A stretch of 64,000 bases of DNA from an uncultured Methylococcaceae bacterium (lineage in GTDB: Bacteria > Pseudomonadota > Gammaproteobacteria > Methylococcales > Methylococcaceae), in contig CAIZPP010000177.1 of NCBI GenBank assembly GCA_903934875.1, positions 17,344 through 81,343 of the forward strand. The letters run 5' to 3'. The notes under the pieces are model-generated. The model made no database searches. It saw nothing but the letters and a program-made list of their open reading frames with translations, and had not been told where the DNA came from. The position numbers and the translations under genes were made by a program. This document shows, in pieces, positions 7,575 to 22,703 of this stretch; the first letter of the stretch is position 1, and every line of letters starts with the position of its first letter.

Positions 7575-9841
7575 ATTCTCTTGTTTTTAGTTTCTGATTT
7601 AACTCGGGAAATTTTTAACACCACGGATAATTTCCGTAGTTCACGCATCACATTGGCCAAGTGCAAGCGGTCTTTTACCGCCAGGGTGATGACATCGGTG
7701 GAAAGTTCGCTATCTTGGTTAGTAATCTGCACATTTTCGATGTTGGCCTTCATCTTGGAAATGACAGAGGCGACTTTGGCTAGAGTGCCCAGCTTATTGA
7801 GTAACTCCAAGCGTATCTCCACAGAAAAGTCGCCGCTGACCTGCCTGTCCCATTCCACATCCAGCCCTGTGTATTGCTTCTTGCGCAACTCAATGACGTT
7901 TTTGCATTCGCTCAAATGCACCACAATGCCTTTGCCGGGATTGAAGAAACCGGCAATTTCATCGCCAGGAATCGGGCGGCAGCACTTCGCCAAGTTAACG
8001 ACCATGCCTTCCGATCCCTTGATGATCAGGGGATAACGCGCACCCTTCTCGACACCATCCAGCCGGTGCGGATGTGCGGTGTCTTCTTGCATCAACAGCC
8101 GCACAACAAGGAAAGGCAGGCGGTTGCCTAGGCCGATATCCTCCTGCAACGATTCGCGCGAAGGCAAATCCAAGGTTTTCAGCAACTCGTTGAAACGCGC
8201 TTCGGGAATGTCTTCCATTCTCATTCCACGGGCACCGAGTTCCTTTTCCAATAGCTTGCTCCCCAAATTGATGGCTTCTTGTTTTTTAAAATTGCGCAGA
8301 TAGCCGCGGATGGCAGACCGTGCTTTGGCGGTGACGACAAAATTAAGCCATAGCGGATTAGGCCTAGCCCAAGGCGCGGTAATGATCTCCACAGTTTGGC
8401 CATTCACCAAAGTAGTTTGCAAGGGGGACAGAACACGGTCAATGCGGGCGGAAACGCAAGCGTTGCCAATATCGGTATGCACTGCGTAGGCGAAATCGAC
8501 GATGGTTGCGCCCCTAGGCAACTTGATGATTTTGCCCTTGGGACTCAGCACATAAACCTCATGCTGGAACAAGTCCACTTTGAGGTTGTCGAGAAACTCC
8601 ATGGAATCGCCCGCGTGTTTCTGGATTTCCAACAAATCGCGCAGCCATTCGTGGGCGCGGGTTTGCGAATTGGAAACCTGCTCCCCTTCCGACTTGTACA
8701 GCCAATGCGCGGCAATACCGCATTCGGCCATATGATGCATGGCTTTGGTACGAATCTGCATTTCCAATGGCTGGCCGAAAGGGCCGACCAGCACCGTGTG
8801 CAGGGATTGGTAGCCGTTTGCCTTGGGCACCGCGATGTAGTCCTTGAAGCGGCTAGGCACCGGTTTGAAAAGGTTGTGGGCCATGCCCAGCGCCCGGTAA
8901 CACTCGTCCACGCTGCCGGTGATGATGCGGTAGGCGTAAACATCGAACACTTCGGCGAATGACAAATGTTTCAAACGCATCTTTTCATAAATGCTGAAAA
9001 CGTGTTTTTCCCTGCCAATCACCTGGAATTCCGCCAGACCGCACTCCTGCAAACGGGTTCTGATGGAGTTCTCAATGTCCGTCAGTAATTCCTTGCGGTT
9101 TCCACACGCTTTTTTGACTTCCTTCTTGAGTATCCGGTGGCGCATGGGATAGTAGGCGGCAAAGCCCAAATCCTCCAACTCCAAGCGCAATTCGTTCATC
9201 CCCAGGCGGTTCGCAATGGGCGCGTAAATGTCCAGCGTTTCTCTCGCAATGCGGCAACGACGCTGGGGTGCCATGACGCCTAGAGTGCGCATATTGTGCA
9301 AACGGTCGGCGAGCTTGACCATGATGACGCGCAAGTCCTTGACCATGGCCATGACCATCTTGCGCACATTCTGCGCCTGCGCCTCGGCCCTGGACTTGCT
9401 GTCAAGTTGGGTTAGTTTGCTGACACCATCGACTAGTTGGGCCACCTCCTCGCCGAATTCCGCCACCAACTGCTCTCTAGAAACCACGGTGTCTTCAATG
9501 ACATCGTGCAACAAACCCGCCATGACACCCTTGGCATCCATCCTCATGTCGGCGAGAATGATCGAAACCGAAATCGGATGGCAAATGTAAGGCTCTCCGC
9601 TGACCCGTTTTTGGCCCTCATGGGCACGCTCCGCCAAACGATAAGCGCGCTGCACCTCTCCCACCTGAACCGGGTCCAAGTAGGTGGACAGCATGGCACT
9701 CAAGCGCCGGATCAACTTTTCCTGCGGCTTTTCCGCTTCGTCTTGGGGAAATTGCTGATGACCTGGCAACCCGCCCGCAGTAAACGAGGATGGATCGTCC
9801 GGGCTCTCCGCTAGATCGGCCTCGCCGGTGTCACCTGCCAT
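7571..9841 (-). CDS. spoT: Bifunctional (p)ppGpp synthetase/hydrolase SpoT
   Basis: HD hydrolase motif (HLLDVIEDT), RelA/SpoT synthetase core, and TGS and ACT C-terminal domains; 756 aa. Confidence 0.9.
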
Positions 9842-11432: not shown

Positions 11433-11720
11433 ATGCCCAAATTTGCCCCCTTCGATGCGGCTGACTACCTTGATGATGAAGAAACCATCGCGGAATATCT
11501 GACCGCCGCACTGGAAGATTCCAACCCCGATGTGTTTCTGGTCGCCGTGCGAGACATAGCCCGCGTCCGCGGCATGGCGCAACTCGCCAAAGACGCAGGC
11601 ATCGGGCGTGAAAGCCTTTACAAGGCACTTACACCCGGAGCCAAGCCACGCTATGACACCATGCTCAAGTTGCTACATGCCTTGAGGATAAAGCTTACCG
11701 CTTCGACTATCCACCCTTAA
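11433..11720 (+). CDS. Putative addiction-module antidote protein (HigA-like, helix-turn-helix)
   Basis: MPKFAPFDAADYLDDEETIAEYLTAALEDSNPDVFLVAVRDIARVRGMAQLAKDAGIGRESLYKAL is the canonical partner of the killer-protein family. Confidence 0.75.
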   Translation: MPKFAPFDAADYLDDEETIAEYLTAALEDSNPDVFLVAVRDIARVRGMAQLAKDAGIGRESLYKALTPGAKPRYDTMLKLLHALRIKLTASTIHP

Positions 11721-12577
11721 TTTTTTTTATCCGCCATCCTCAACGCCGCCTGATAAGCCAGTTCTTTTCTCGCCCCGGTGATTTTTGCGGTCAGCGCGGC
11801 GGCGGTTTTCACCGAGCATTCCTCCAACAGCAGGGCCAGCACCCTGCCCTGTTCCGATGTTAGCTCTTCCTTAGTCTTTTGCGCTGACGCGCCTTCAAGC
11901 AGCACGACAAACTCACCCTTTTCCATGTTAGGGTCGGCCTCCACATAACTGACTGCTGCGGAAACTTTGCATCGGAGGATGGTTTCGTGTAGTTTGGTCA
12001 GTTCACGGGCAACGACGACCTGCCGTTGCGGCGGAAAAACCTGGGCGATATCCTTCAAGAAATCCAATACCCTATGGCTGGACTCATAGAAAATCAGCGT
12101 CCTTGCATCATCCGCCAGACTTTCCAGCAGGGCGCGGCGGGCGGACGAGGTGCGCGGCGGGAAGCCCTCAAAGGCGAAACGCGCAGCAGGCAGGCCACTG
12201 GCGGACAGTGCCGCGACTAGGGCGCAAGCACCGGGAACCGGCACCACGCGCAAACCGCGCTCTGTCGCCAGACGCACTAGGGGGAAACCCGGGTCGTTAA
12301 TCAGCGGAGTGCCGGCATCGGAGATCAAGGCCATAGATTCGCCCTGCTCCAAGCGGTCCAGCAATTTGGAAGAGGCGGTGTCTTCGTTGTGTTCATGCAG
12401 CGCGGTCAGTGGCTTGATGATGCCGTAGCGTTCCAGCAAGGGTCGGCTGTGGCGGGTATCCTCGCAAGCGATGAAATCGACCCCTTGTAAAACCGCAACG
12501 GCGCGAAAACTGAAATCAGCCTGATTGCCGATAGGTGTCGCGACTAGGTATAGTATGCCTTTAGGATTTTCCGGCAT
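11717..12577 (-). CDS. rsmI: 16S rRNA (cytidine1402-2'-O)-methyltransferase
   Basis: LYLVATPIGN...ACEDTR tetrapyrrole-methylase fold. Start set at Met54 of the track ORF (GGAG 7 nt upstream); divergent from lpoA as in E. coli. Confidence 0.85.
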   Translation of the reverse strand: MPENPKGILYLVATPIGNQADFSFRAVAVLQGVDFIACEDTRHSRPLLERYGIIKPLTALHEHNEDTASSKLLDRLEQGESMALISDAGTPLINDPGFPLVRLATERGLRVVPVPGACALVAALSASGLPAARFAFEGFPPRTSSARRALLESLADDARTLIFYESSHRVLDFLKDIAQVFPPQRQVVVARELTKLHETILRCKVSAAVSYVEADPNMEKGEFVVLLEGASAQKTKEELTSEQGRVLALLLEECSVKTAAALTAKITGARKELAYQAALRMADKKN

Positions 12578-12614
12578 AATTCCATCTCCAAACTTAATAA
12601 CATAATTCATTCCC

Positions 12615-14588
12615 ATGCCCAAAGCCAAGCAGCTTTTAATCTTCAGCCTCCTTCTTGCCCTGGCCGGCTGTGCCGGGCAATCAACACGGCATCGCGACAC
12701 CCCGCTGATAGCGGAGGCCAGCGAACGTTTCCGCAATGGCGATTACGCCGGGGCCTCGCAAATCTACCAGCGCCTTGCCGAAACCTCCGACGACGCGGAC
12801 TATTTCCGCTTGTTGGCAGCCGATGCCGAATTGCGGGCGGGTAATGACCGGGCGGCGCGGGCGCTACTCGGGGCGATCAAACCGGATGAGTTGGCAGAAG
12901 GCGACCAACAACGTTATGCCCTGCTGCGTGCCCGCATTGATTTGAACCAAGGCAATGCGCGGGAGGCTATGGCCCGCTTGGACGGCATTGATTACCAAAA
13001 ACTGACTGCTCCGTTGCGGGTGCATTATCACACACTACGCGCCTCCGCCTACAACCAGTTGGGCGATATGCTGGAATGCGCCCGCGAACGGGTTTATTAC
13101 GGACAACTGACCAACAACCCCGAAGCCATCCAAAAAAACAACGAGGCCATTTATGATGCGCTTAACCGCCTGCCTTACAAGGTTCTTACCGATCTGCAAC
13201 CCAGCACCCAAGGCACCTTGGGCGGGTGGATGGCTTTGGTCATTGCACTGCACAGTTCCGATGCCAGCCGGACCCAAGCACTGCAAGTCTGGCGGGCGAA
13301 CTACCCCGGACACCCGGCCAACGGCGTGTTTGTCGAGGGTTTCTTAGGCAAGAAAGGCAAGCCAGTGGAGACCACGCCACTGAAATCCCCGGCTAAGGAA
13401 CCAGCAATGGCACCCACTCCTACACCTGCGCCTGTACCCGTGCCGGTTTCAGCCGCACCGATGCCACCACCCCAACAACCCGCCCCGCCAAACCCTGTTC
13501 CGGCGCAAACGGCTCCCTCGGCGGGTGGCTTCATCGGTGTCATGCTGCCATTGACCGGAAGCTACGCCCAAGCCGCGCAAGCCGTGCGGACGGGCATGTC
13601 TGCCGCGTGGAATGCCGACACCAATCCGGGTCGGCCTGAACTGCGTTTTGTCGATACGCAAGGCGCAGACTTAGGCGCGGCGTACCGTAAATTGGCCGAC
13701 GATGGCGCAAAATCTGTCATCGGCCCCCTGCTCAAGGAAGAAGTGGCCGCACTGGCTAGGAGCGGTAACTTTACTGTTCCCGTGCTGGCGCTCAACCAAG
13801 CCAGCGAAGCCAACAACCGCGACGGACTCTACCAATTCGCCTTGACGCCCGAGCAAGAAGTCGAGCAGACAGCCAGCCTTGCTTGGTTCGATGGCCGACA
13901 AAACGCATTATTGCTGGCCCCGGCATCGGCCTTCGGCCAACGCATGATCAACCATTTCAGCACGTATTGGAAAAACCTGGGCGGAAAAATCTCCAACATC
14001 AAGACTTACCAGCCGGGCGCGGCAGACTACTCCGAAACCGCAAAACGCTTGCTGTCCAATGAGGCAGGCGAGGCTGGAACTGCCGGCGCACCCCCAGCGG
14101 AATTTATTTTTATGATTGCAGACACCCGCGATGGCCGTCTGCTCAACCCGCACATTGAAAACCAGGAGTCCACACGCATTCCGGTCTATGCAACCTCCCT
14201 CATCTTCGATGGACAGCCAAGCGCACCGCAGAACGCCGATTTGTCCGGGGTGACTTTTTGCGACAGTCCTTGGCTTTTGAGCAATGACACCGGGGGTTTA
14301 TCCCGTCAGACCATGCATGCAGAGGTAGCGCAAACGCCTGCGGTATATCTGCGTCTGCTACCCATGGGGATTGATGCCTACCAGTTGATTGCCACACTGA
14401 ATCAACTGAAAAGCGGCGGGCAAAGCCAGTTTTCTGGGGCTACCGGTGTATTGACCCTAAAGGGCAACAAGGTAAACCGCCAATTGCATTGTGCGCAGTT
14501 TGGCGACAACAACCTGCAACCGCTGGGCATCGCACCGACACTCCAGCCTAGCGCATCACCGGCTGCCCCTAATGCTATTCCGCAATGA
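12615..14588 (+). CDS. lpoA: Penicillin-binding protein activator LpoA (outer-membrane lipoprotein)
   Basis: Lipobox LALAGC, N-terminal TPR-like region, proline-rich linker, and a C-terminal periplasmic-binding-protein-like domain. Confidence 0.8.
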
Positions 14589-14952
14589 ACCCAGTGCCGC
14601 GCACCTGGCCGCAGGACAGCGGGCCGAGGATAGCGCCCTGGCCTTTCTGCAAACGCAGGGTATGGTGCTGGTGGAAAGGAACTATCGTTGCCGGGGCGGG
14701 GAAATCGACCTCATCATGCGGGATGGGGTCAAGATCGTCTTCGTTGAAGTGCGCTACCGTAGTGACCAGCGTTTCGGCGGGGCGCTGGCCAGCGTCGGTG
14801 CCCGCAAACAAGCACGGTTGGTCCACGCCGCCTCCCACTACTTGGCGACGAAGCACATCGACCGGCCTGCCCGCTTCGACGTGGCGGCTGTTTCGCCAGA
14901 CCAAGGCAGGCTTGCGGTACAATGGATTAAAGACGCTTTCCAGACGGGATGA
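14572..14952 (+). CDS. yraN: YraN-family (UPF0102) predicted endonuclease
   Basis: ...[21 protein letters not shown]... consensus. Start chosen at an internal Met and is uncertain. Confidence 0.7.
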
Positions 14953-15009
14953 ATGTAGGGGCGGGTTTAGAGCCCGCCCCTACGGATATTCCACGATTGT
15001 TTTGAATGA

Positions 15010-15615
<606 letters not shown>

Positions 15616-15618
15616 GCC

Positions 15619-17004
15619 ATGACGATAAGCCCCGAATTTCTCGCCCGCCTGCGGCAGGTGCTTCCGATTGGGGCTATCCACACCGACCCCGCCGACTGCT
15701 GGGCCTACGGCTACGATAACTCCAAAAGACACGCCCTGCCCGAAGCGGTGGCCTTCCCCACCCGGCATGACCAGGTTCTGTCGATCGTCCGCCTGTGCAA
15801 TGAATACCGCATTCCATTGACCCCGCGCGGGCGCGGCACCGGCACCACGGGCGCGGTCGTCCCCTTGCAGGGTGGCTTGACGATGTCGCTGGAACGCATG
15901 AACCAAATCGTTGAACTGGCCCCGGACAACCGTTTTGCCGTGGTGGAGCCGGGCCTGACCAACCAAGCATTGCAGGATGCGCTGAAACCCTTAGGCTTCT
16001 TCTGGCCACCCGACCCGACCAGCGCCGCCTATTGCAGCATAGGCGGCAATCTCGCCTACAACTCAGCCGGCCCCCGCGCCGTTAAGTACGGAACGCCCCG
16101 CGATAATATTTTCGGACTGCGGGCCGTCACCGGCGACGGGCGCGAACTGCGCACCGGGGTCTACACCAGCAAAGGCGTGGTGGGCCTGGACCTGACCCGG
16201 CTCATCGTCGGCAGCGAGGGCACTTTGGCGGTCATCACCGAGGCCACCCTCAAACTGACACCGCTGGCGGAAGCCATGCGCACGATGCGGGCTGTTTACG
16301 CCAGCGTCGATGCCGCCACCCGCGCCATCGCCCGCGTCATGGCGCAGCCGCTTACCCCCTGTGCGCTGGAATTCATGGATGCCAACGCCATTGAGATGAT
16401 CCGCCAGTATGCCGACGTGGCATTGCCCACCGGAGCCGGTGCCTTGCTGATGATCGAAGTCGATGGGCCGGCATCCGGGCTGGACGCGGCGGTCGCTAAT
16501 ATCGGGCAAACTGCCACGGTTGAAGGCTTGCTGGACTTCCGCATCGCCCACAACAAAGAGGAGATCGAGGCGCTGTGGCGTACCCGCAAAGCGCTCTCCC
16601 CGGCTCTGCGCAAAGTCGCCCCTGGCAAAATCAACGAAGACGTGGTTGTGCCCGTCAGCGAATTGCCCGCCCTGATCAATGGGCTGAATCGGCTGTCGCA
16701 AACCTATGGACTGCGCATCGTCAACTTCGGCCACGCCGGCAACGGCAATATCCATGTCAACCTGTTGCTAGACCCGGCCCAAGCAGGGCAACAGGAGAAA
16801 GCCGATGAGTGTTTAGGCGCTGTGTTCGACTTGGTGTTGGGCCTGCGCGGCACCCTGTCCGGCGAACATGGCATAGGCTTGGTCAAGCGGGATTACGTCA
16901 GCCGGGAGTTGGATGCCGTGTCCATGGATTTGATGCGGGCCATACAGCGGCAGTTCGACCCGAATGGGATTTTGAACCAGGGTAAAATGTTACCAAATAT
17001 TTAG
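15619..17004 (+). CDS. FAD-linked oxidase (glycolate oxidase subunit GlcD / D-lactate dehydrogenase family)
   Basis: FAD_binding_4 N-terminus (PEAVAFPTRHDQVLSIVRLC..IPLTPRGRGTG) and a C-terminal FAD-oxidase domain; 461 aa. Confidence 0.75.
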   Translation: MTISPEFLARLRQVLPIGAIHTDPADCWAYGYDNSKRHALPEAVAFPTRHDQVLSIVRLCNEYRIPLTPRGRGTGTTGAVVPLQGGLTMSLERMNQIVELAPDNRFAVVEPGLTNQALQDALKPLGFFWPPDPTSAAYCSIGGNLAYNSAGPRAVKYGTPRDNIFGLRAVTGDGRELRTGVYTSKGVVGLDLTRLIVGSEGTLAVITEATLKLTPLAEAMRTMRAVYASVDAATRAIARVMAQPLTPCALEFMDANAIEMIRQYADVALPTGAGALLMIEVDGPASGLDAAVANIGQTATVEGLLDFRIAHNKEEIEALWRTRKALSPALRKVAPGKINEDVVVPVSELPALINGLNRLSQTYGLRIVNFGHAGNGNIHVNLLLDPAQAGQQEKADECLGAVFDLVLGLRGTLSGEHGIGLVKRDYVSRELDAVSMDLMRAIQRQFDPNGILNQGKMLPNI

Positions 17005-17015
17005 AGGAATACACC

Positions 17016-17348
17016 TTGAACACCCCTCTCCAAACCGCGCAAACCCTGTTGATGCAGATGACGAGATCGGAGAAAGCCCAGCTTCTGCAATGGGTCGTCA
17101 ATGATTTGGGCGATGCATTTCCGGGAATTGATAGCCGTCCCGGCATGTGCGGTGGAGAACCCTGCATAGTCCGCACCCGCATACCAGTCTGGCTATTGGA
17201 ACAGGCAAGACGGTTAGGTATCGGGGAGGTTGAAATATTGCAGTCTTACCCTACCTTGCACGCCGAGGATTTGGCCCAAGCATGGAGTTATGTTCGCTCT
17301 CACCGTGAAGAGATTGACCGGCAGATACGGGAAAACGAGGACGCTTAA
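17016..17348 (+). CDS. DUF433-domain putative antitoxin
   Basis: GGEPCIVRTRIPVWLL...EILQSYPTLHAEDL matches the DUF433 core. Confidence 0.7.
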   Translation: MNTPLQTAQTLLMQMTRSEKAQLLQWVVNDLGDAFPGIDSRPGMCGGEPCIVRTRIPVWLLEQARRLGIGEVEILQSYPTLHAEDLAQAWSYVRSHREEIDRQIRENEDA

Positions 17349-17351
17349 GGC

Positions 17352-17690
17352 ATGGCGCGATTGTACTCAAACGAAAACTTTCCACAACTTGCAGTCGAAG
17401 TATGGCGCCAGTTAGGGCATGATGTCTTGACGATACTGGAGACAGGCCGGGCCAACCAAGCCATTCCCGACGAAGAGGTTTTGACTTTTGCAATGATGGA
17501 AAACCGGGCTGTACTCACGCTAAACCGTAAACACTTCATTCGTTTGCATCAGCAATTGCCGGAACATGCCGGAATTATCGTTTGCACCTTCGATATTGAC
17601 TTTCGAGGGCTGGCACAACGCGTTGATGTAGCGATTAAAGCCCAGGACAGATTGCAAGGTCAGTTGTTGAGAATAAATCGCTGTAATTGA
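17352..17690 (+). CDS. DUF5615-family (PIN-like/Mut7-C-like) putative toxin
   Basis: MARLYSNENFP..L...G.DV... start typical of DUF5615; 4-nt gap after the DUF433 gene. Confidence 0.65.
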   Translation: MARLYSNENFPQLAVEVWRQLGHDVLTILETGRANQAIPDEEVLTFAMMENRAVLTLNRKHFIRLHQQLPEHAGIIVCTFDIDFRGLAQRVDVAIKAQDRLQGQLLRINRCN

Positions 17691-17741
17691 TGAAAATTCA
17701 GTGGCCCAACACAGCAAGCCTTAAGAAAATAAATACCCAGC

Positions 17742-19091
17742 ATGCAGATTCATAGCGACGAACCGGCCGAAACAGACGGCTTGCAGCGTCAACATCTAGT
17801 GGTGGAAATAGCCACCATAGCCGCCACGGCAACACCGCCTTTAGTGCTGGGTGTGCATGGGGACTGGGGTTCGGGCAAGACCAGTTTCATGAAGCATGTC
17901 CGCAAGGAACTGGATGGCAAGCACACGAAAAATGTCGTGACAGTGTGGTTTGAGGCATGGCGTTATCAAAACGAACCGGCACCTGTGGTGGCCTTGTTGC
18001 AAGAAATGCGGCAAGCCTTTAGCAAATGGAAAAAACTCGATGGCCGCATCAAAAAACTCGGCGAAATTACTATCCGCACCCTGCTGAACAGCCTTAACGA
18101 TTTGGCGAAATTAGTCCAGTTGGAATCCTTGCCCTTTTCGGCGGAAAAAATCCAACTCTTGGGCGAGCAATGGGAAAGGGAAAATCTGGAAAGCAGACTG
18201 GTGGTTGACTCTTTGCAAGACAGCCTGCAAGAAGCCATTAAAACGCTGCTGCCCGATTCCAAAGACCCGTCGCCCCGCGTCGTCATCTTCATCGACGACC
18301 TGGACCGCTGCAATCCCGAAATGGCCTACCGGCTGCTGGAAGGCTTGAAAATCTACCTGAATCTGAACAATTGCGTGTTTGTGCTGGCGATGAACCAGCA
18401 AATCGTCATCAAGGCCATCGCCTCGGTGATGAAAAAGGAAGACGACGATGCCCGTGTGCGGCTGGAAGCAGAAGCCTATCTGGAAAAGCTTTGCGCGAAC
18501 ATCTGGCGCTTGCCACCGCCGAAACTATCCCACCAGTACTTTACCGCCTTGCTCGACACTACACAAAACACGCCGATTCAAGCCATCACTGACGCGGCAG
18601 AAACTTCGCGGCCCTTCCTGCCACCCAACCCGCGCCGCCTGAAGGCGTTAGCCAACCTATACAACCGGTTGTGGCTACGGGCAATGAATACGGCAACAAT
18701 CATCCTCGACCATTCTGGCCAGCCCACGCTGGCTTTGCGTATCTTGGTGGTGGCTTATGTGTACCAATTCCATTCCGAATTTTACCAACGCTGGCGGCAT
18801 GACCCCACCTTTTTGGAGGAACTGCGCCGCTGGATGCAAACCGGTAAACCTAAACTGATCCAGAACAAGGAAGGCAAAGATATACCTGACCCGGCTTTCT
18901 TCGCACTGATACTGCCTAGCTTTGCGAAGACGGATGATGGCTCACCCACACCGGGTGCGACGACCATCACCAGTAACTACCCCGACCCCTCCGCCCCCGG
19001 TGTGTTTTGGATCGCGCCCTTATTGCAAGGGCCGTTGGCTGATGACGGACCGGAGAATTATCGTGACTTGCTGAACTTGGAACAAGCATGA
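17742..19091 (+). CDS. KAP-family P-loop NTPase
   Basis: Walker A GDWGSGKTSF and Walker B VVIFIDDLDRC (KAP signatures); 449 aa. Its stop overlaps the start of the downstream NACHT gene (ATGA). Confidence 0.75.
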   Translation: MQIHSDEPAETDGLQRQHLVVEIATIAATATPPLVLGVHGDWGSGKTSFMKHVRKELDGKHTKNVVTVWFEAWRYQNEPAPVVALLQEMRQAFSKWKKLDGRIKKLGEITIRTLLNSLNDLAKLVQLESLPFSAEKIQLLGEQWERENLESRLVVDSLQDSLQEAIKTLLPDSKDPSPRVVIFIDDLDRCNPEMAYRLLEGLKIYLNLNNCVFVLAMNQQIVIKAIASVMKKEDDDARVRLEAEAYLEKLCANIWRLPPPKLSHQYFTALLDTTQNTPIQAITDAAETSRPFLPPNPRRLKALANLYNRLWLRAMNTATIILDHSGQPTLALRILVVAYVYQFHSEFYQRWRHDPTFLEELRRWMQTGKPKLIQNKEGKDIPDPAFFALILPSFAKTDDGSPTPGATTITSNYPDPSAPGVFWIAPLLQGPLADDGPENYRDLLNLEQA

Positions 19092-21682
19092 ACGCCTACG
19101 CAGACCCCTTGCTAGACCCTCGTTTGCGGCCTTATTTGAAAGACGTGCAGGCTTGGCATGGCTATGTGCGCTTTCTCGGCCTGCCTACGCTGCAAGACCA
19201 CCCGGACACGCCGCTGCACGAATTGTTCGTGCCGCCGTTGCTGTCCAAATATTCGGTATCGACGGAAACCCCCACGGCAAACTGGCCGAAAGGCGAACCG
19301 GTATTGGCCACGTTGCACGAAGCCAAGCGGCTGGTGGTGCTGGGCGATCCGGGCAGCGGCAAATCCGTGTTGGTCAATTGGCTGGCTTGGCTGTTGGTGT
19401 CGGGCGTGGAGGAACGTGTGCCCGAATGGCTGCGCGGCTGCATCCCCTTGCCCTTGGTGTTGCGGGAAATGGAACTGGGCGGCGTGAAAGATTTCGACAG
19501 TTTGCTGGATGCCTTCCTAAAACGCCGGGTGGCTTTGCATTTAAAAGGGCAAAAAGATTTATTGGTCAAATGGTTGCAAGCAGGCCGGGTGTTGGTGCTG
19601 GCCGATGGATTGGACGAAGTAGGCAGCGGGCAGCGGGAGGGTTTGCGCGATGCCTTGTGGGATGGGTTTGCCCAATATCCTGAAAGCTATTTCTTCGCGA
19701 CTTCGCGGCTGGTGGGGTATGAGGATTGCCCTGTTGATTGGCGAAAAAAAGATTTGCCCCAAGATGATACTCGACTGCAAAATTGGCGAATTGATGGTCG
19801 AGTTGGAGAACGTCCCGGTTATTGGCGACATATGGCTGAACTCCTTCATATCATGCCCTTCGACGACGACCGCATCCGCGCTTTTGCGGTAAACTGGTAT
19901 CGGCTGCGCTCACTTAAACCGACTGCGGACAGCGATGCGGAACAATTCATCAAAGCCTTGTTCCGCGACGAAACCACGCGCAGTCTGGCCCGCAACCCGC
20001 AATTGCTGACCTTGATGGCCTTGGTTTACCGGGTGCGGGCGCAGTTGCCGGATGGCCGGGCGTTGTTGTACGATTTGATTGCCGAGGCTTATCTGGAATC
20101 CATAGACCAGGCCCGCAACATCACCACCAGTGCTGCCGATGCCGCGCCTTGGCGGGAAAAACGCCGCTGGTTGGCACGAGTGGGGTTTGAACTGCAATAC
20201 CGCCGGATGGGCACCGCTTCTTCTACAGGGCAGGAAAGTAAGACCGACGCGGTCTCAAAGACCGCGTCGGTCTCTGGCCATGTACAGGGTGAGGGCGAAC
20301 AAGAATTACTGGCAACACGAAAAGACGTGTTGGGCTGGTTGGCAGCAGCCATGCACGAATCGGGATACTCCGCCAACCCCGGTTTTGTCGATTCCTATTT
20401 GCATTGGGTGGCCCGACGCAGTGGCTTGTTGCTGCCGCGAGGTGAAGAGCTATTCGCGTTTGTGCATTTGTCGTTTCAAGAGTATTTCGCCGCGTTGTAC
20501 TTGTGCGAACACTTTGTGGATGCCGATTGGGTGCTGGCACAGCGGGATGGAACATCTGCCACAGACGGCGATGCCCGCGTCAACACCGCGCTGTTGCGGG
20601 CTTGGGCCAAAGACCCGCGCTGGCAGGACACCTTAGTGTTTTGTTTCGAGAACTTCGCGTTCCAGCCCAAGGATGCCAAGCGGCTGTTGGGATGGTTGTT
20701 TGGAGACGATTACCAAGATTTTCTTAATGATGTACTCCAATACTCTGAGGATATATTCGAATCGCTCCGGGAAGCCGGACGCGCTGAGTTGTTGGCGCGG
20801 ATATTGACCAATCCACACACGGGACTCACACTATTAGAACGGGGGGCTGCATTTAATGCGGTCTGGCAGTATATGGAGCAGGCCGAGCATCGTTTTAATG
20901 ATACTTTCTTCCACTTGTTTACTCCTGAGAAAGTACTGAATCGTTTGTTAGCTTCTGATGAATGGGCCGGGAAATTTTGGCAACGCCTGATCCAATATAA
21001 TCCCCTATCTCTAAATTTAATTCAAAGTACTATCAGTGATCTCTCGACCTTGGCTCAACTGACTGGCTTGCATAAGCTCTTATTGGACCAAACCGCCGTC
21101 AGCGATTTGTCGCCTCTGGTCCAGTTGCCCCACTTGCAAAAGCTCTACTTGGACCGAACCGCCGTCAGTGACCTGTCGCCTCTGGCCCAACTGACTGACT
21201 TGAAGCAGATCGATTTGGGTGAAACAAATGTCAGCGATCTATCGCCGCTGGAACAATTGACTGGCTTGCAGTGGCTTAGCCTGAGCCAAACTGCCATAAG
21301 CGACCTATCGCCTCTGGCCAAGTTGACCGGCTTGCAGCGGCTTAGCTTGAGTCAAACCGCCGTCAGCGACCTATCGCCTCTGGCCGGATTGACCGGCTTG
21401 CAGAGTCTCTTCTTGAACCAAACTGCCGTAAGCGACCTTTCGCCGCTGGCCCAATTGACCCGCTTGCTAAGGCTCTCCTTGGATCAAACCGCCGTCAGTG
21501 ACATCTCCCCGCTGGCCCAATTGACCGGCTTGCAGACACTCTCCTTGAATCAAACTGCCGTCAGCGACCTGTCGCCATTGCTCCGGCTCCCTAATTTAAA
21601 AGACCTTTACATTAACGGTGTCCAAGCCCCAATCCCGACCGCTTTGCGCCAACGTAAGGGCTTGAAAATTGATGGGCCATGA
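19088..21682 (+). CDS. NACHT-domain STAND NTPase with a C-terminal leucine-rich-repeat array (bacterial NLR-like)
   Basis: Walker A GDPGSGKS and Walker B VLVLADGLDEV (hhhhDGhDE NACHT form), a helical arm, then about nine 22-aa repeats L..L..L..L.L..T.VSDLSPLA. Confidence 0.75.
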   Translation: MNAYADPLLDPRLRPYLKDVQAWHGYVRFLGLPTLQDHPDTPLHELFVPPLLSKYSVSTETPTANWPKGEPVLATLHEAKRLVVLGDPGSGKSVLVNWLAWLLVSGVEERVPEWLRGCIPLPLVLREMELGGVKDFDSLLDAFLKRRVALHLKGQKDLLVKWLQAGRVLVLADGLDEVGSGQREGLRDALWDGFAQYPESYFFATSRLVGYEDCPVDWRKKDLPQDDTRLQNWRIDGRVGERPGYWRHMAELLHIMPFDDDRIRAFAVNWYRLRSLKPTADSDAEQFIKALFRDETTRSLARNPQLLTLMALVYRVRAQLPDGRALLYDLIAEAYLESIDQARNITTSAADAAPWREKRRWLARVGFELQYRRMGTASSTGQESKTDAVSKTASVSGHVQGEGEQELLATRKDVLGWLAAAMHESGYSANPGFVDSYLHWVARRSGLLLPRGEELFAFVHLSFQEYFAALYLCEHFVDADWVLAQRDGTSATDGDARVNTALLRAWAKDPRWQDTLVFCFENFAFQPKDAKRLLGWLFGDDYQDFLNDVLQYSEDIFESLREAGRAELLARILTNPHTGLTLLERGAAFNAVWQYMEQAEHRFNDTFFHLFTPEKVLNRLLASDEWAGKFWQRLIQYNPLSLNLIQSTISDLSTLAQLTGLHKLLLDQTAVSDLSPLVQLPHLQKLYLDRTAVSDLSPLAQLTDLKQIDLGETNVSDLSPLEQLTGLQWLSLSQTAISDLSPLAKLTGLQRLSLSQTAVSDLSPLAGLTGLQSLFLNQTAVSDLSPLAQLTRLLRLSLDQTAVSDISPLAQLTGLQTLSLNQTAVSDLSPLLRLPNLKDLYINGVQAPIPTALRQRKGLKIDGP
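21040..21600 (+). repeat. Tandem 66-bp coding repeats (LRR units) inside the NACHT gene
   Basis: About nine consecutive 66-bp units (…caaaccgccgtcagcga(c/t)(c/t)t(a/g)tcgcc(t/g)ctggcc…). Confidence 0.8.
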
Positions 21683-21845
21683 TGCGCGGCGGCCTGCTTC
21701 CCGTGGGAGCTTCGAAAAAGTCGATCCTCAGAGGTTTTTCTGCTTCCCATGCTCCAACGCCCATCATTACACACGAGTATTACAGCGTTTTCACGTTTAC
21801 AATACCTTCGCCAATATCATGCGAGACCTCAGTTTTTGGCACAGC

Positions 21846-21941
21846 ACCACTGATCTGAGGGCCAAGCTGGTGCTTGGCGCTCCCAGAAGGAACGCCAAGC
21901 ACCAGCTTGGAGAGGTGGATTCATTATTGGAAATCACCTAA
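21846..21941. repeat. Family-3 repeat (hairpin 'ccaagctggtgcttggcg...cgccaagcaccagcttgg' plus tail 'ggtggattcattattggaaatcacct'), copy 1
   Basis: Second copy at 29875-30008. Preceded by a partial family-1 terminus at 21781-21810. Confidence 0.75.
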
Positions 21942-22207
21942 AGCAGTTTGACTAGAGTGGCGACAATGCCTATCGAAAAGGCCATCAACGCACCCAGTTT
22001 GATGACAATGCGCAACTCCATCTCACGCATGTCACGGCGGAGCAAGTCCACCTCCCGCGTAAGGTCGTCTTTGCTTGCCAAGTCCTTTAGGTTGATTTCG
22101 AGCACTTCCGCCAAGGCTTCCGCCTCGGCTTCGGCTTGTTTGTCGGACACACCCGCATCCTTCAGGCGCTTGGAATATTTCAACCTGTCGAATGCGATGG
22201 CGGCCAT
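21938..22207 (-). CDS. DUF1640-family protein (coiled coil plus C-terminal transmembrane helix)
   Basis: MAAIAFDRLKYSKRLKDAGVSDKQAEAEAEALAEVL... C-terminal hydrophobic helix; 89 aa. Confidence 0.6.
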   Translation of the reverse strand: MAAIAFDRLKYSKRLKDAGVSDKQAEAEAEALAEVLEINLKDLASKDDLTREVDLLRRDMREMELRIVIKLGALMAFSIGIVATLVKLL

Positions 22208-22361
22208 GGGCGTACCTCTTTAGGTCATGCTGTGTTGTTGCCTTACCAAAGGATTTTACCGCACGGACTGCCTGAACAAAAGCAAATTGCATTTGATGGC
22301 GGTGTTGTTGCCGCCGCCACAAGGTGTGGATTTTTTCAGTCATATCCTTGAAACGCTGTAA

Positions 22362-22703
22362 CTACAAACGATCAGCCAACCTAAGCAACAATGCCGCAAT
22401 AATAGTAATTTGCAAGATTCCCACGCCGACAACCCAACGGATTAAATCAGCCTTGGTTTCGGCGATGTCACGCTTTAACTCAGAGCGCACCAGTTCTATT
22501 TTTAACTCGGTTTCCTTGATGCGCGAATCCAAGTCTTTCCTTGTAGCTAATTCCTCCGGCCTGAAGTCTTGCCGCGCTTGTTCAACCGCCGCAGCGCTCG
22601 CTTGACGTTGCAAATCGGTGATAACTTCGGCCTGGGACTCGGAAAAACCGGAATCCCTAAGGCGCTTCACAAACTCATGCGTGTCGAACGTAATGGCTAT
22701 CAT
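22362..22703 (-). CDS. DUF1640-family protein, tandem paralogue
   Basis: MIAITFDTHEFVKRLRDSGFSESQAEVITDL... C-terminal transmembrane helix; 113 aa. Confidence 0.6.
   Translation of the reverse strand: MIAITFDTHEFVKRLRDSGFSESQAEVITDLQRQASAAAVEQARQDFRPEELATRKDLDSRIKETELKIELVRSELKRDIAETKADLIRWVVGVGILQITIIAALLLRLADRL

Follow-up and report, generated by a model that had tools for sequence, protein, structure and literature searches.

We identified a two-gene unit, obligate and translationally coupled, in a 64,000-nucleotide stretch of DNA (hereafter the window) from an uncultured Methylococcaceae bacterium (contig CAIZPP010000177.1 of GenBank assembly GCA_903934875.1). The first gene encodes a KAP-family P-loop NTPase and the second a NACHT-type NTPase with C-terminal leucine-rich repeats (LRR). 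The pair is probably an obligate, horizontally mobile conflict module, with phages as its likeliest target. We infer the defence function, as well as the biochemistry of the KAP protein, from homology and genomic context.

The KAP gene (positions 17742-19091, + strand) begins with ATG and encodes a soluble P-loop NTPase of 449 amino acids (aa). The NACHT-LRR gene (19088-21682, + strand), also with an ATG start, encodes 864 aa and resembles a bacterial version of the nucleotide-binding, LRR-containing (NLR) proteins in a form that lacks an effector domain. Stop and start codons overlap in the tetranucleotide ATGA (19088-19091, + strand), which can be read directly from the DNA as ...gcATGAac... 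and provides for translational coupling. Both open reading frames (ORFs) are long and have hundreds of homologues (E = 0 to 1e-160), so chance ORFs are excluded; the closest named relatives are metagenome-assembled genomes of Methylococcales. An initial annotation of this DNA had described a 449-aa KAP NTPase with GDWGSGKT and IDDLDRC motifs that ends in an ATGA overlap, followed by an 864-aa NACHT protein with GDPGSGKS, LVLADGLDEV and about nine 22-aa LRRs. Both descriptions are confirmed, the former by the ORFs and the Pfam profile PF07693 (102.6 bits) and the latter by Pfam, Tandem Repeats Finder and the sequence itself.

The pairing of the two genes recurs far beyond this organism. A scan with an alignment of the KAP family, covering one genome per GTDB species, returned 571 relatives, and the best 80 of these (30-52% identity) were examined. 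Two of the 80 contigs end right after KAP. The remaining 78 loci are informative, and in all of them a NACHT homologue (27-54% identity) lies directly 3' of KAP on the same strand. They are from more than 10 phyla, and include members of the Pseudomonadota, Planctomycetota, Verrucomicrobiota, Acidobacteriota, Spirochaetia, Binatia, Armatimonadota, Hydrogenedentota, Desulfobacterota, Nitrospirota and Actinomycetota. In 72 of the 78 loci, the NACHT frame has a start codon no more than 15 nt from the stop of KAP, and stop and start overlap in 37 (by 4 nt, as in the window, in 33 and by 1 nt in four). Pairwise identities of the KAP proteins and of the nucleotide-binding oligomerization domain (NOD) modules of their partners are correlated, with r = 0.94 (61 pairs, 1830 comparisons). 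Thus, the two genes are passed on together, as one unit. The homologue lists of the two proteins also have many contigs in common, and no KAP subfamily member without a NACHT gene was found down to 30% identity, barring truncations at contig ends. Co-occurrence in other genomes had been named beforehand, in the initial annotation, as the test of the pairing, and it is complete among the informative loci.

An independent check was made in the reverse direction, by searching metagenomes with an alignment of the NACHT-LRR protein. Close NACHT relatives for which sufficient upstream sequence is available have a KAP gene upstream (L088, L090-L097, L107, L110 and L136). The two exceptions (L086 and L089) carry a fused effector domain. 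There is no third conserved gene: when the 659 flanking ORFs of the 78 loci were clustered, the largest cluster was represented in 6 of 78. KAP-NACHT fusions were considered and not found among the top homologues (PF07693 is absent from the NACHT list, and the KAP matches are all 300-560 aa long).

An alternative is that these are two independent single-gene defence proteins, a KAP protein like PDC-S20 and a bacterial NACHT (bNACHT) protein, that are merely adjacent in a defence island. PADLOC does list PDC-S20, the nearest KAP profile, as a single-gene candidate, and most tested bNACHT genes are outside conserved operons (bioRxiv 10.1101/2022.07.19.500537). However, the fixed order and strand, the frequent stop/start overlap, the co-divergence of the two proteins and the lack of NACHT-less KAP genes all argue against chance adjacency, and no member of the KAP family matches PDC-S20 better than about 1e-37. 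We therefore consider independence most improbable.

Two loci have a less compact arrangement. In L034, the KAP and NACHT genes are separated by an insertion of approximately 1.5 kb (8353-9833). L074 has what seems to be a truncated KAP, with a gap of 400 nt after it (8047-8484). Degradation or interruption of the module may account for both.

The NACHT relatives that lack a KAP gene are informative as to its role. L086 and L089 are the closest unpaired relatives and the only two close relatives without KAP. L086 (985-4401) encodes a 1138-aa fusion of a caspase (Peptidase_C14, E 5.5e-23) to NACHT and LRR domains, and L089 (951-3927) a DUF4062-NACHT fusion with an apparent frameshift between 2213 and 1927. 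The junction of the additional domain in each of these fusions is immediately 5' of a conserved HGYVRFLGLP segment. More distant NACHT relatives (24-30% identity) also lack KAP, as well as any LRR match. These have N-terminal extensions of 150-600 aa, with Walker A at residue 150-640, and the domains in the extensions include an Mrr_cat nuclease (5 loci), a calcineurin-like phosphoesterase (4 loci), DUF4062 (2 loci), a trypsin-like peptidase (1 locus) and NNH2 (1 locus). Such domains fall within the bNACHT effector and adaptor types described by Kibby et al. (bioRxiv 10.1101/2022.07.19.500537). In all KAP-paired NACHT proteins the N-terminus is short: Walker A is at aa 83-146, apart from one protein in which it is at 170. 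As effectors in the relatives are fused just upstream of the NOD, the separate, translationally coupled KAP gene occupies the effector position of this clade. The suggestion, made when the locus was first annotated, that KAP might supply the effector is supported by the placement of effector domains in the fused relatives.

The second gene product is itself an NLR-type protein by several lines of analysis. It matches the Pfam NACHT profile (PF05729) marginally, at 28.7 bits against a gathering cutoff of 26.7, and PF05729 is listed in precomputed annotations for nearly all of its homologues. It has the signature D[GAS]hDE (LVLADGLDEV, aa 169-178), by which NACHT proteins are told apart from the other clades of STAND NTPases (Kibby et al., bioRxiv 10.1101/2022.07.19.500537). 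Residues D173, G174, D176 and E177 of this signature are invariant across 45 homologues, and 66 of the 67 partners encoded at the loci have DG[ILVMY]DE, a 107-aa fragment being the only one that does not. Positions 19343-19366 encode Walker A (GDPGSGKS, aa 86-93) and positions 19592-19618 encode Walker B together with the NACHT signature (LVLADGLDE, aa 169-177), both on the + strand. The AlphaFold2 model (pLDDT 84) was aligned by Foldseek over its full length to NLRC4 (4kxf; ~1000 columns, E 8e-16), NOD2 (5irm) and NLRP3. It has the expected NOD architecture, in which a nucleotide-binding domain (NBD) is followed by helical (HD) and winged-helix (WHD) domains. By sequence, model and fold search, the NBD-HD1-WHD-HD2 module spans aa 81-636 (19328-20995, + strand), and there is a weak NLRC4_HD2 match at aa 460-519. 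The doubt raised at the outset, that NACHT-specific features might be absent on profile search, is thus answered by the invariant signature, the above-threshold Pfam match and the full-length alignments.

The C-terminal region (aa 637-864; 20996-21682, + strand) is an LRR domain and the putative sensor, as is expected at the C-terminus of the tripartite NLR architecture. It consists of nine 22-aa repeats of internalin/Roco type (aa 639-836) and a C-terminal cap, and it matches LRR_4 at E 3e-28. Tandem Repeats Finder recovers a 66-bp period with 8.0 copies at 21051-21576, and profile matches to the LRRs of internalin A and Roco proteins reach E 1e-80. As the model aligns to NLRC4, NOD2 and NLRP3 and the repeats to internalin and Roco proteins, the predicted structure identifies the protein as a true NLR-type NOD-LRR protein.

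The third part of the tripartite architecture, an N-terminal effector or adaptor in the same polypeptide, is absent. No effector domain was found in the NACHT protein by Pfam, NCBIfam, PADLOC or fold search, and there are only ~80 residues before the NBD. The P-loop begins at aa 86, so the upstream segment is ~80-85 aa rather than the ~75 aa first reported; the reported lack of an effector was correct and, given the short N-termini of KAP-paired NACHT proteins, is a trait of the whole family. The segment itself (aa 1-80; 19088-19327, + strand), which contains the motif WHGYVRFLGLP, is highly conserved in the alignment of 45 homologues. It is the pre-NBD part of the NOD and not a family-specific adaptor, because distant NACHT relatives with fused effectors have it as well (their alignments begin at residue 13-16).

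The first gene product is a confident member of the KAP family. It matches KAP_NTPase (PF07693) at 102.6 bits (E 3e-29), far above the cutoff of 20 bits, and has both a GxWGxGKT Walker A (GDWGSGKT, aa 40-47; 17859-17882, + strand) and a DDLDR Walker B (IFIDDLDRC, aa 182-190; 18285-18311, + strand). Across 44 homologues, G40, G43, G45 and K46 of Walker A and I184, D185, D186, D188, R189 and C190 of Walker B are invariant. As the Walker A and B residues are invariant in both families, the KAP and NACHT proteins both look like active NTPases. At 50% identity, the KAP subfamily falls into 279 clusters (E <= 1e-30), and the best structural match of its member in the window is RdrA of the RADAR system.

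Between the KAP Walker motifs, the structure model and hydropathy place a helical insert at aa 96-175 (18027-18266, + strand). Transmembrane (TM) helices in this position were reportedly described by Aravind et al. in 2004 as typical of many KAP proteins, and not universal. Unlike the classical members, the KAP protein of the window has a soluble insert. No TM segment was found by hydropathy anywhere in the protein (the highest 19-aa window, 1.66, is at a core beta-strand, aa 211-229), and the insert is amphipathic and modelled as helices at low confidence (pLDDT 53-62).

The rates of evolution differ among the parts of the module. In the closest relative, in which KAP is 84% identical, identity of the NACHT protein is 86% in the N-terminal segment, 71% in the NBD, 81% in HD1-WHD, 61% in HD2 and 46% in the LRR. 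The LRR is therefore the fastest-evolving region of the NACHT protein, and divergence of the N-terminal segment (aa 1-80) tracks that of KAP. The number and type of repeats also vary among partners. RI-type LRR_6 repeats are present in place of the internalin type in L056, and in L002, L076, L077 and L080 the C-terminal 290-420 aa of the NACHT protein have no Pfam match. The sensor end is exchangeable and the KAP-NOD core is retained. As judged from these sequence comparisons, the LRR varies in the way that would be expected of a sensor engaged in an arms race. Within KAP, the helical insert is the fastest-evolving part (44-72% identity in close relatives).

A possible mechanism can be outlined from these features. 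The NACHT-LRR protein would be an NLR-type sensor and switch, in which the LRR solenoid recognises a phage protein or a host protein perturbed or modified by phage. The NACHT module would then bind or exchange nucleotide and oligomerise. The co-translated KAP NTPase may be a dedicated partner that supplies the output arm in trans: as an oligomerising, RdrA-like protein it could be recruited or activated by the assembled NLR, and arrest the cell or the infection through an ATP-dependent activity. Candidate outputs are runaway NTP hydrolysis, remodelling of a target, or an action via the fast-evolving helical insert. Signalling quite possibly runs from the NLR to KAP as output, a direction that we infer. 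The complete relay, in which an effector-less NACHT-LRR protein assembles on a phage ligand and activates the KAP ATPase as executioner, is possible and is put forward tentatively.

Several observations weigh against this scheme. In most descriptions of known systems (RdrA of RADAR, Qat and fused KAP proteins), KAP-type ATPases act as sensors or regulators and not as executioners, and the direction could therefore be reversed. Effector-less proteins of the bNACHT01 type defend alone (Kibby et al., bioRxiv 10.1101/2022.07.19.500537), and the NLR therefore need not have a separate effector. No toxic or catalytic domain beyond the NTPase is recognisable in KAP by Pfam or structure search, and the rapid evolution of its insert would fit a second sensing surface or one targeted by inhibitors. 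As for defence in general, many of the loci lie among housekeeping genes.

The main alternative is a reversed arrangement, or one with co-sensors. KAP would then be the primary sensor or guard that licenses the NACHT-LRR protein, whose oligomer would itself cause toxicity or arrest; or else KAP would be a negative regulator of the NLR. Such a role is consistent with the usual function of KAP and STAND-like ATPases as switches, with the place of the closest KAP structure (RdrA) as the regulatory partner in RADAR, and with the fast divergence of the KAP insert. Also, no effector is known for the bNACHT01 clade, whose members nevertheless defend, and bNACHT16 is toxic when mutated to a hyperactive form (bioRxiv 10.1101/2022.07.19.500537). 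In that study a gain-of-function WHD substitution, equivalent to one at H443 of NLRC4, was made in bNACHT16 and bNACHT25. Against this are the caspase, DUF4062, Mrr, phosphoesterase and trypsin domains borne by NACHT-LRR relatives where the KAP gene sits, and the LRR, which as the most variable part of the system behaves as a sensor should. We consider the reversed arrangement rather unlikely.

We return to the scheme in which the pair acts in defence and consider where it is found. Four Pseudomonas prophages bear the pair between integrase and excisionase genes: three are IMG/VR contigs (L166-L168; 1-8462 in L166), and one is in P. pharyngis BML-PP036 (L035, 5792-11606). A CI-type repressor is encoded nearby in L166 and L167, and hotspots of this kind, between cI and integrase, are reservoirs of defence systems (Rousset et al., PMC9122126). 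The four represent one prophage family, with integrases that are 91-95% identical and KAP cargo that is 79-87% identical. Thus, divergence or exchange is faster for the cargo than for the backbone of the phage. In Pseudomonas putida QH1 (NZ_CP109606.1, about 4.354-4.358 Mb), the pair is at 6947-11232 of L004. A small serine recombinase gene (Resolvase; 11795-12367, - strand) is located ~560 nt 3' of it, and the upstream side has ligA and a gene for an exonuclease-BRCT protein. Genes for small serine recombinases are a proposed marker of defence loci (bioRxiv 10.1101/2025.10.07.681051). A scan of 148 neighbours with Pfam and PADLOC identified four type III methylases and a few toxin-antitoxin toxins (BrnT, ParE and PIN), the others being housekeeping genes; the defence-type neighbours are suggestive. 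Distribution of the pair is patchy across phyla and its flanks are entirely unconserved. The pair is probably a horizontally mobile module.

The housekeeping neighbours bear on a further alternative, that the two ATPases form a housekeeping or regulatory signalling pair, for example in stress or envelope signalling. Genes such as lpoA, diaA, FAD oxidase, ligA, PEPCK and LpxC flank the pair in the window and at several other loci. However, a function of this type accords poorly with the patchy distribution and wholly unconserved flanks, with carriage of the pair as cargo within a prophage int-xis module, with the fusion of sister proteins to caspase, nuclease or peptidase effectors, and with the hypervariable LRR. 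It is very unlikely.

In the window, the insertion site of the module follows a block of housekeeping genes that is conserved in gammaproteobacteria (11717-17004) and comprises rsmI (- strand), lpoA/LppC, a UPF0102/YraN-like gene, a SIS-domain (diaA-like) gene and an FAD-linked oxidase. No tRNA genes are present in the 64-kb window, and no integrase was seen adjoining the module. A scan for promoters and terminators (16900-22400) gave fewer sites than shuffled sequences, and thus is uninformative on operon boundaries.

Directly 5' of the KAP gene and on the same strand are genes for DUF433 and PIN-like DUF5615 proteins (17016-17348 and 17352-17690, + strand), which look like a type II toxin-antitoxin pair, in keeping with a defence setting. 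They accompany the module in all metagenomic copies of this organism, and their adjacency to it is not conserved in other taxa (78 loci). On the 3' side, the 1.2-kb stretch between the NACHT-LRR gene and a gene for an AMP-binding enzyme contains two genes for paralogous small proteins (21938-22207 and 22362-22703, both - strand). Both proteins combine a coiled coil with a TM helix at the C-terminus. The 113-aa protein encoded at 22362-22703 has a CCDC90-like (DUF1640) Pfam match in the gene-call table, and that encoded at 21938-22207 is similar to it in sequence. A 90-aa ORF (21669-21941) overlaps the NACHT stop codon; it was unconserved when the flanking ORFs were clustered, and is probably spurious.

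The pair bears on how effector-less NLRs signal and on what KAP NTPases do biochemically. As a clean genetic system, it allows one to ask if a switch NTPase can serve as the output of a second one, a question made testable by the homologues in culturable Pseudomonas (P. putida QH1 and the prophage of P. pharyngis BML-PP036). The module is also widespread, and the defence-annotation tools now in use would overlook it or report a single-gene candidate. If the relay is true, KAP NTPases would be a new class of NLR-controlled effector, and prokaryotic immunity would have in this pair its first obligate cascade of two NTPases.

The two protein families have each been linked to defence. An anti-phage function of bNACHT proteins has been established by experiment (Kibby et al., bioRxiv 10.1101/2022.07.19.500537), and phage protection that depends on Walker B has been demonstrated for fused KAP NTPases (bioRxiv 10.1101/2025.10.07.681051). 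bNACHT genes are found only rarely in operons, and these are poorly conserved (Kibby et al., bioRxiv 10.1101/2022.07.19.500537); in contrast, the NACHT gene described here has an obligate, coupled KAP NTPase gene upstream. KAP is not mentioned in the text or tables of that study. Among known systems, bNACHT proteins with LRRs, such as bNACHT16, are especially close to the module. A second difference is in domain structure, as bNACHT16 has NNH1 at aa 8-238 whereas the NACHT protein of the window has no fused N-terminal effector or adaptor. EruA, a NACHT antiphage protein (NCBIfam NF058535), was considered for the latter and rejected, given a partial match of 35.6 bits where the equivalog needs at least 1000. 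PADLOC has no model for the NACHT-LRR protein.

For KAP, the best PADLOC profile is PDC-S20 (PDLC04959; E 2.7e-37, 127 bits, aa 2-376 of the protein; profile length 464, similar to that of the protein). All 44 members of the KAP family match this profile only at ~1e-37 or weaker (no curated cutoff was used), which indicates, so far as profile scores can, that the family is a sister of PDC-S20 rather than its seed family. PDC-S20 is an unvalidated PADLOC candidate composed of a single gene, whereas the KAP described here has an obligatory second gene; no literature on PDC-S20 was found in open-access papers. Scores for PifA (E 7e-24) and QatA (E 3e-23) rank below PDC-S20. The KAP P-loop NTPase core is common to this protein, PifA of the F plasmid, QatA and the fused KAP proteins, but the protein from the window has no TM helices, no QatBCD partners and no fused C-terminal region of unknown function. 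Membership of PifA was rejected, as was Qat membership (NCBIfam QatA 95.4 bits against a cutoff of 600, and no neighbours corresponding to QatB, the QueC-like QatC or the TatD-type QatD). RADAR shares the closest structural relative. There, the partner of RdrA is the adenosine deaminase RdrB, whereas here the partner of KAP is a NACHT-LRR NTPase, and KAP is about half the length of RdrA with a sequence identity of 14-16%. Membership of RADAR was rejected, and no deaminase is encoded in the window or among conserved neighbours.

Eukaryotic immunity provides a possible parallel. In NAIP-NLRC4 and in plant sensor/helper NLRs, sensing and execution are divided between two proteins. The module may likewise split these functions between two P-loop switch NTPases, but both partners in the eukaryotic pairs are NLRs, whereas the second NTPase here is a KAP protein, and the likeness is one of functional analogy only. 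In bacteria, KAP can displace STAND in effector-associated domain (EAD) systems (Kaur et al. 2021). We found no published description of a KAP and NACHT-LRR pair in open-access papers and supplements, and the initial view that the pairing is not a named system agrees with our searches of PADLOC, NCBIfam and the literature. Most likely, the pairing of KAP with NACHT-LRR is a previously undescribed variant of NLR-type anti-phage immunity.

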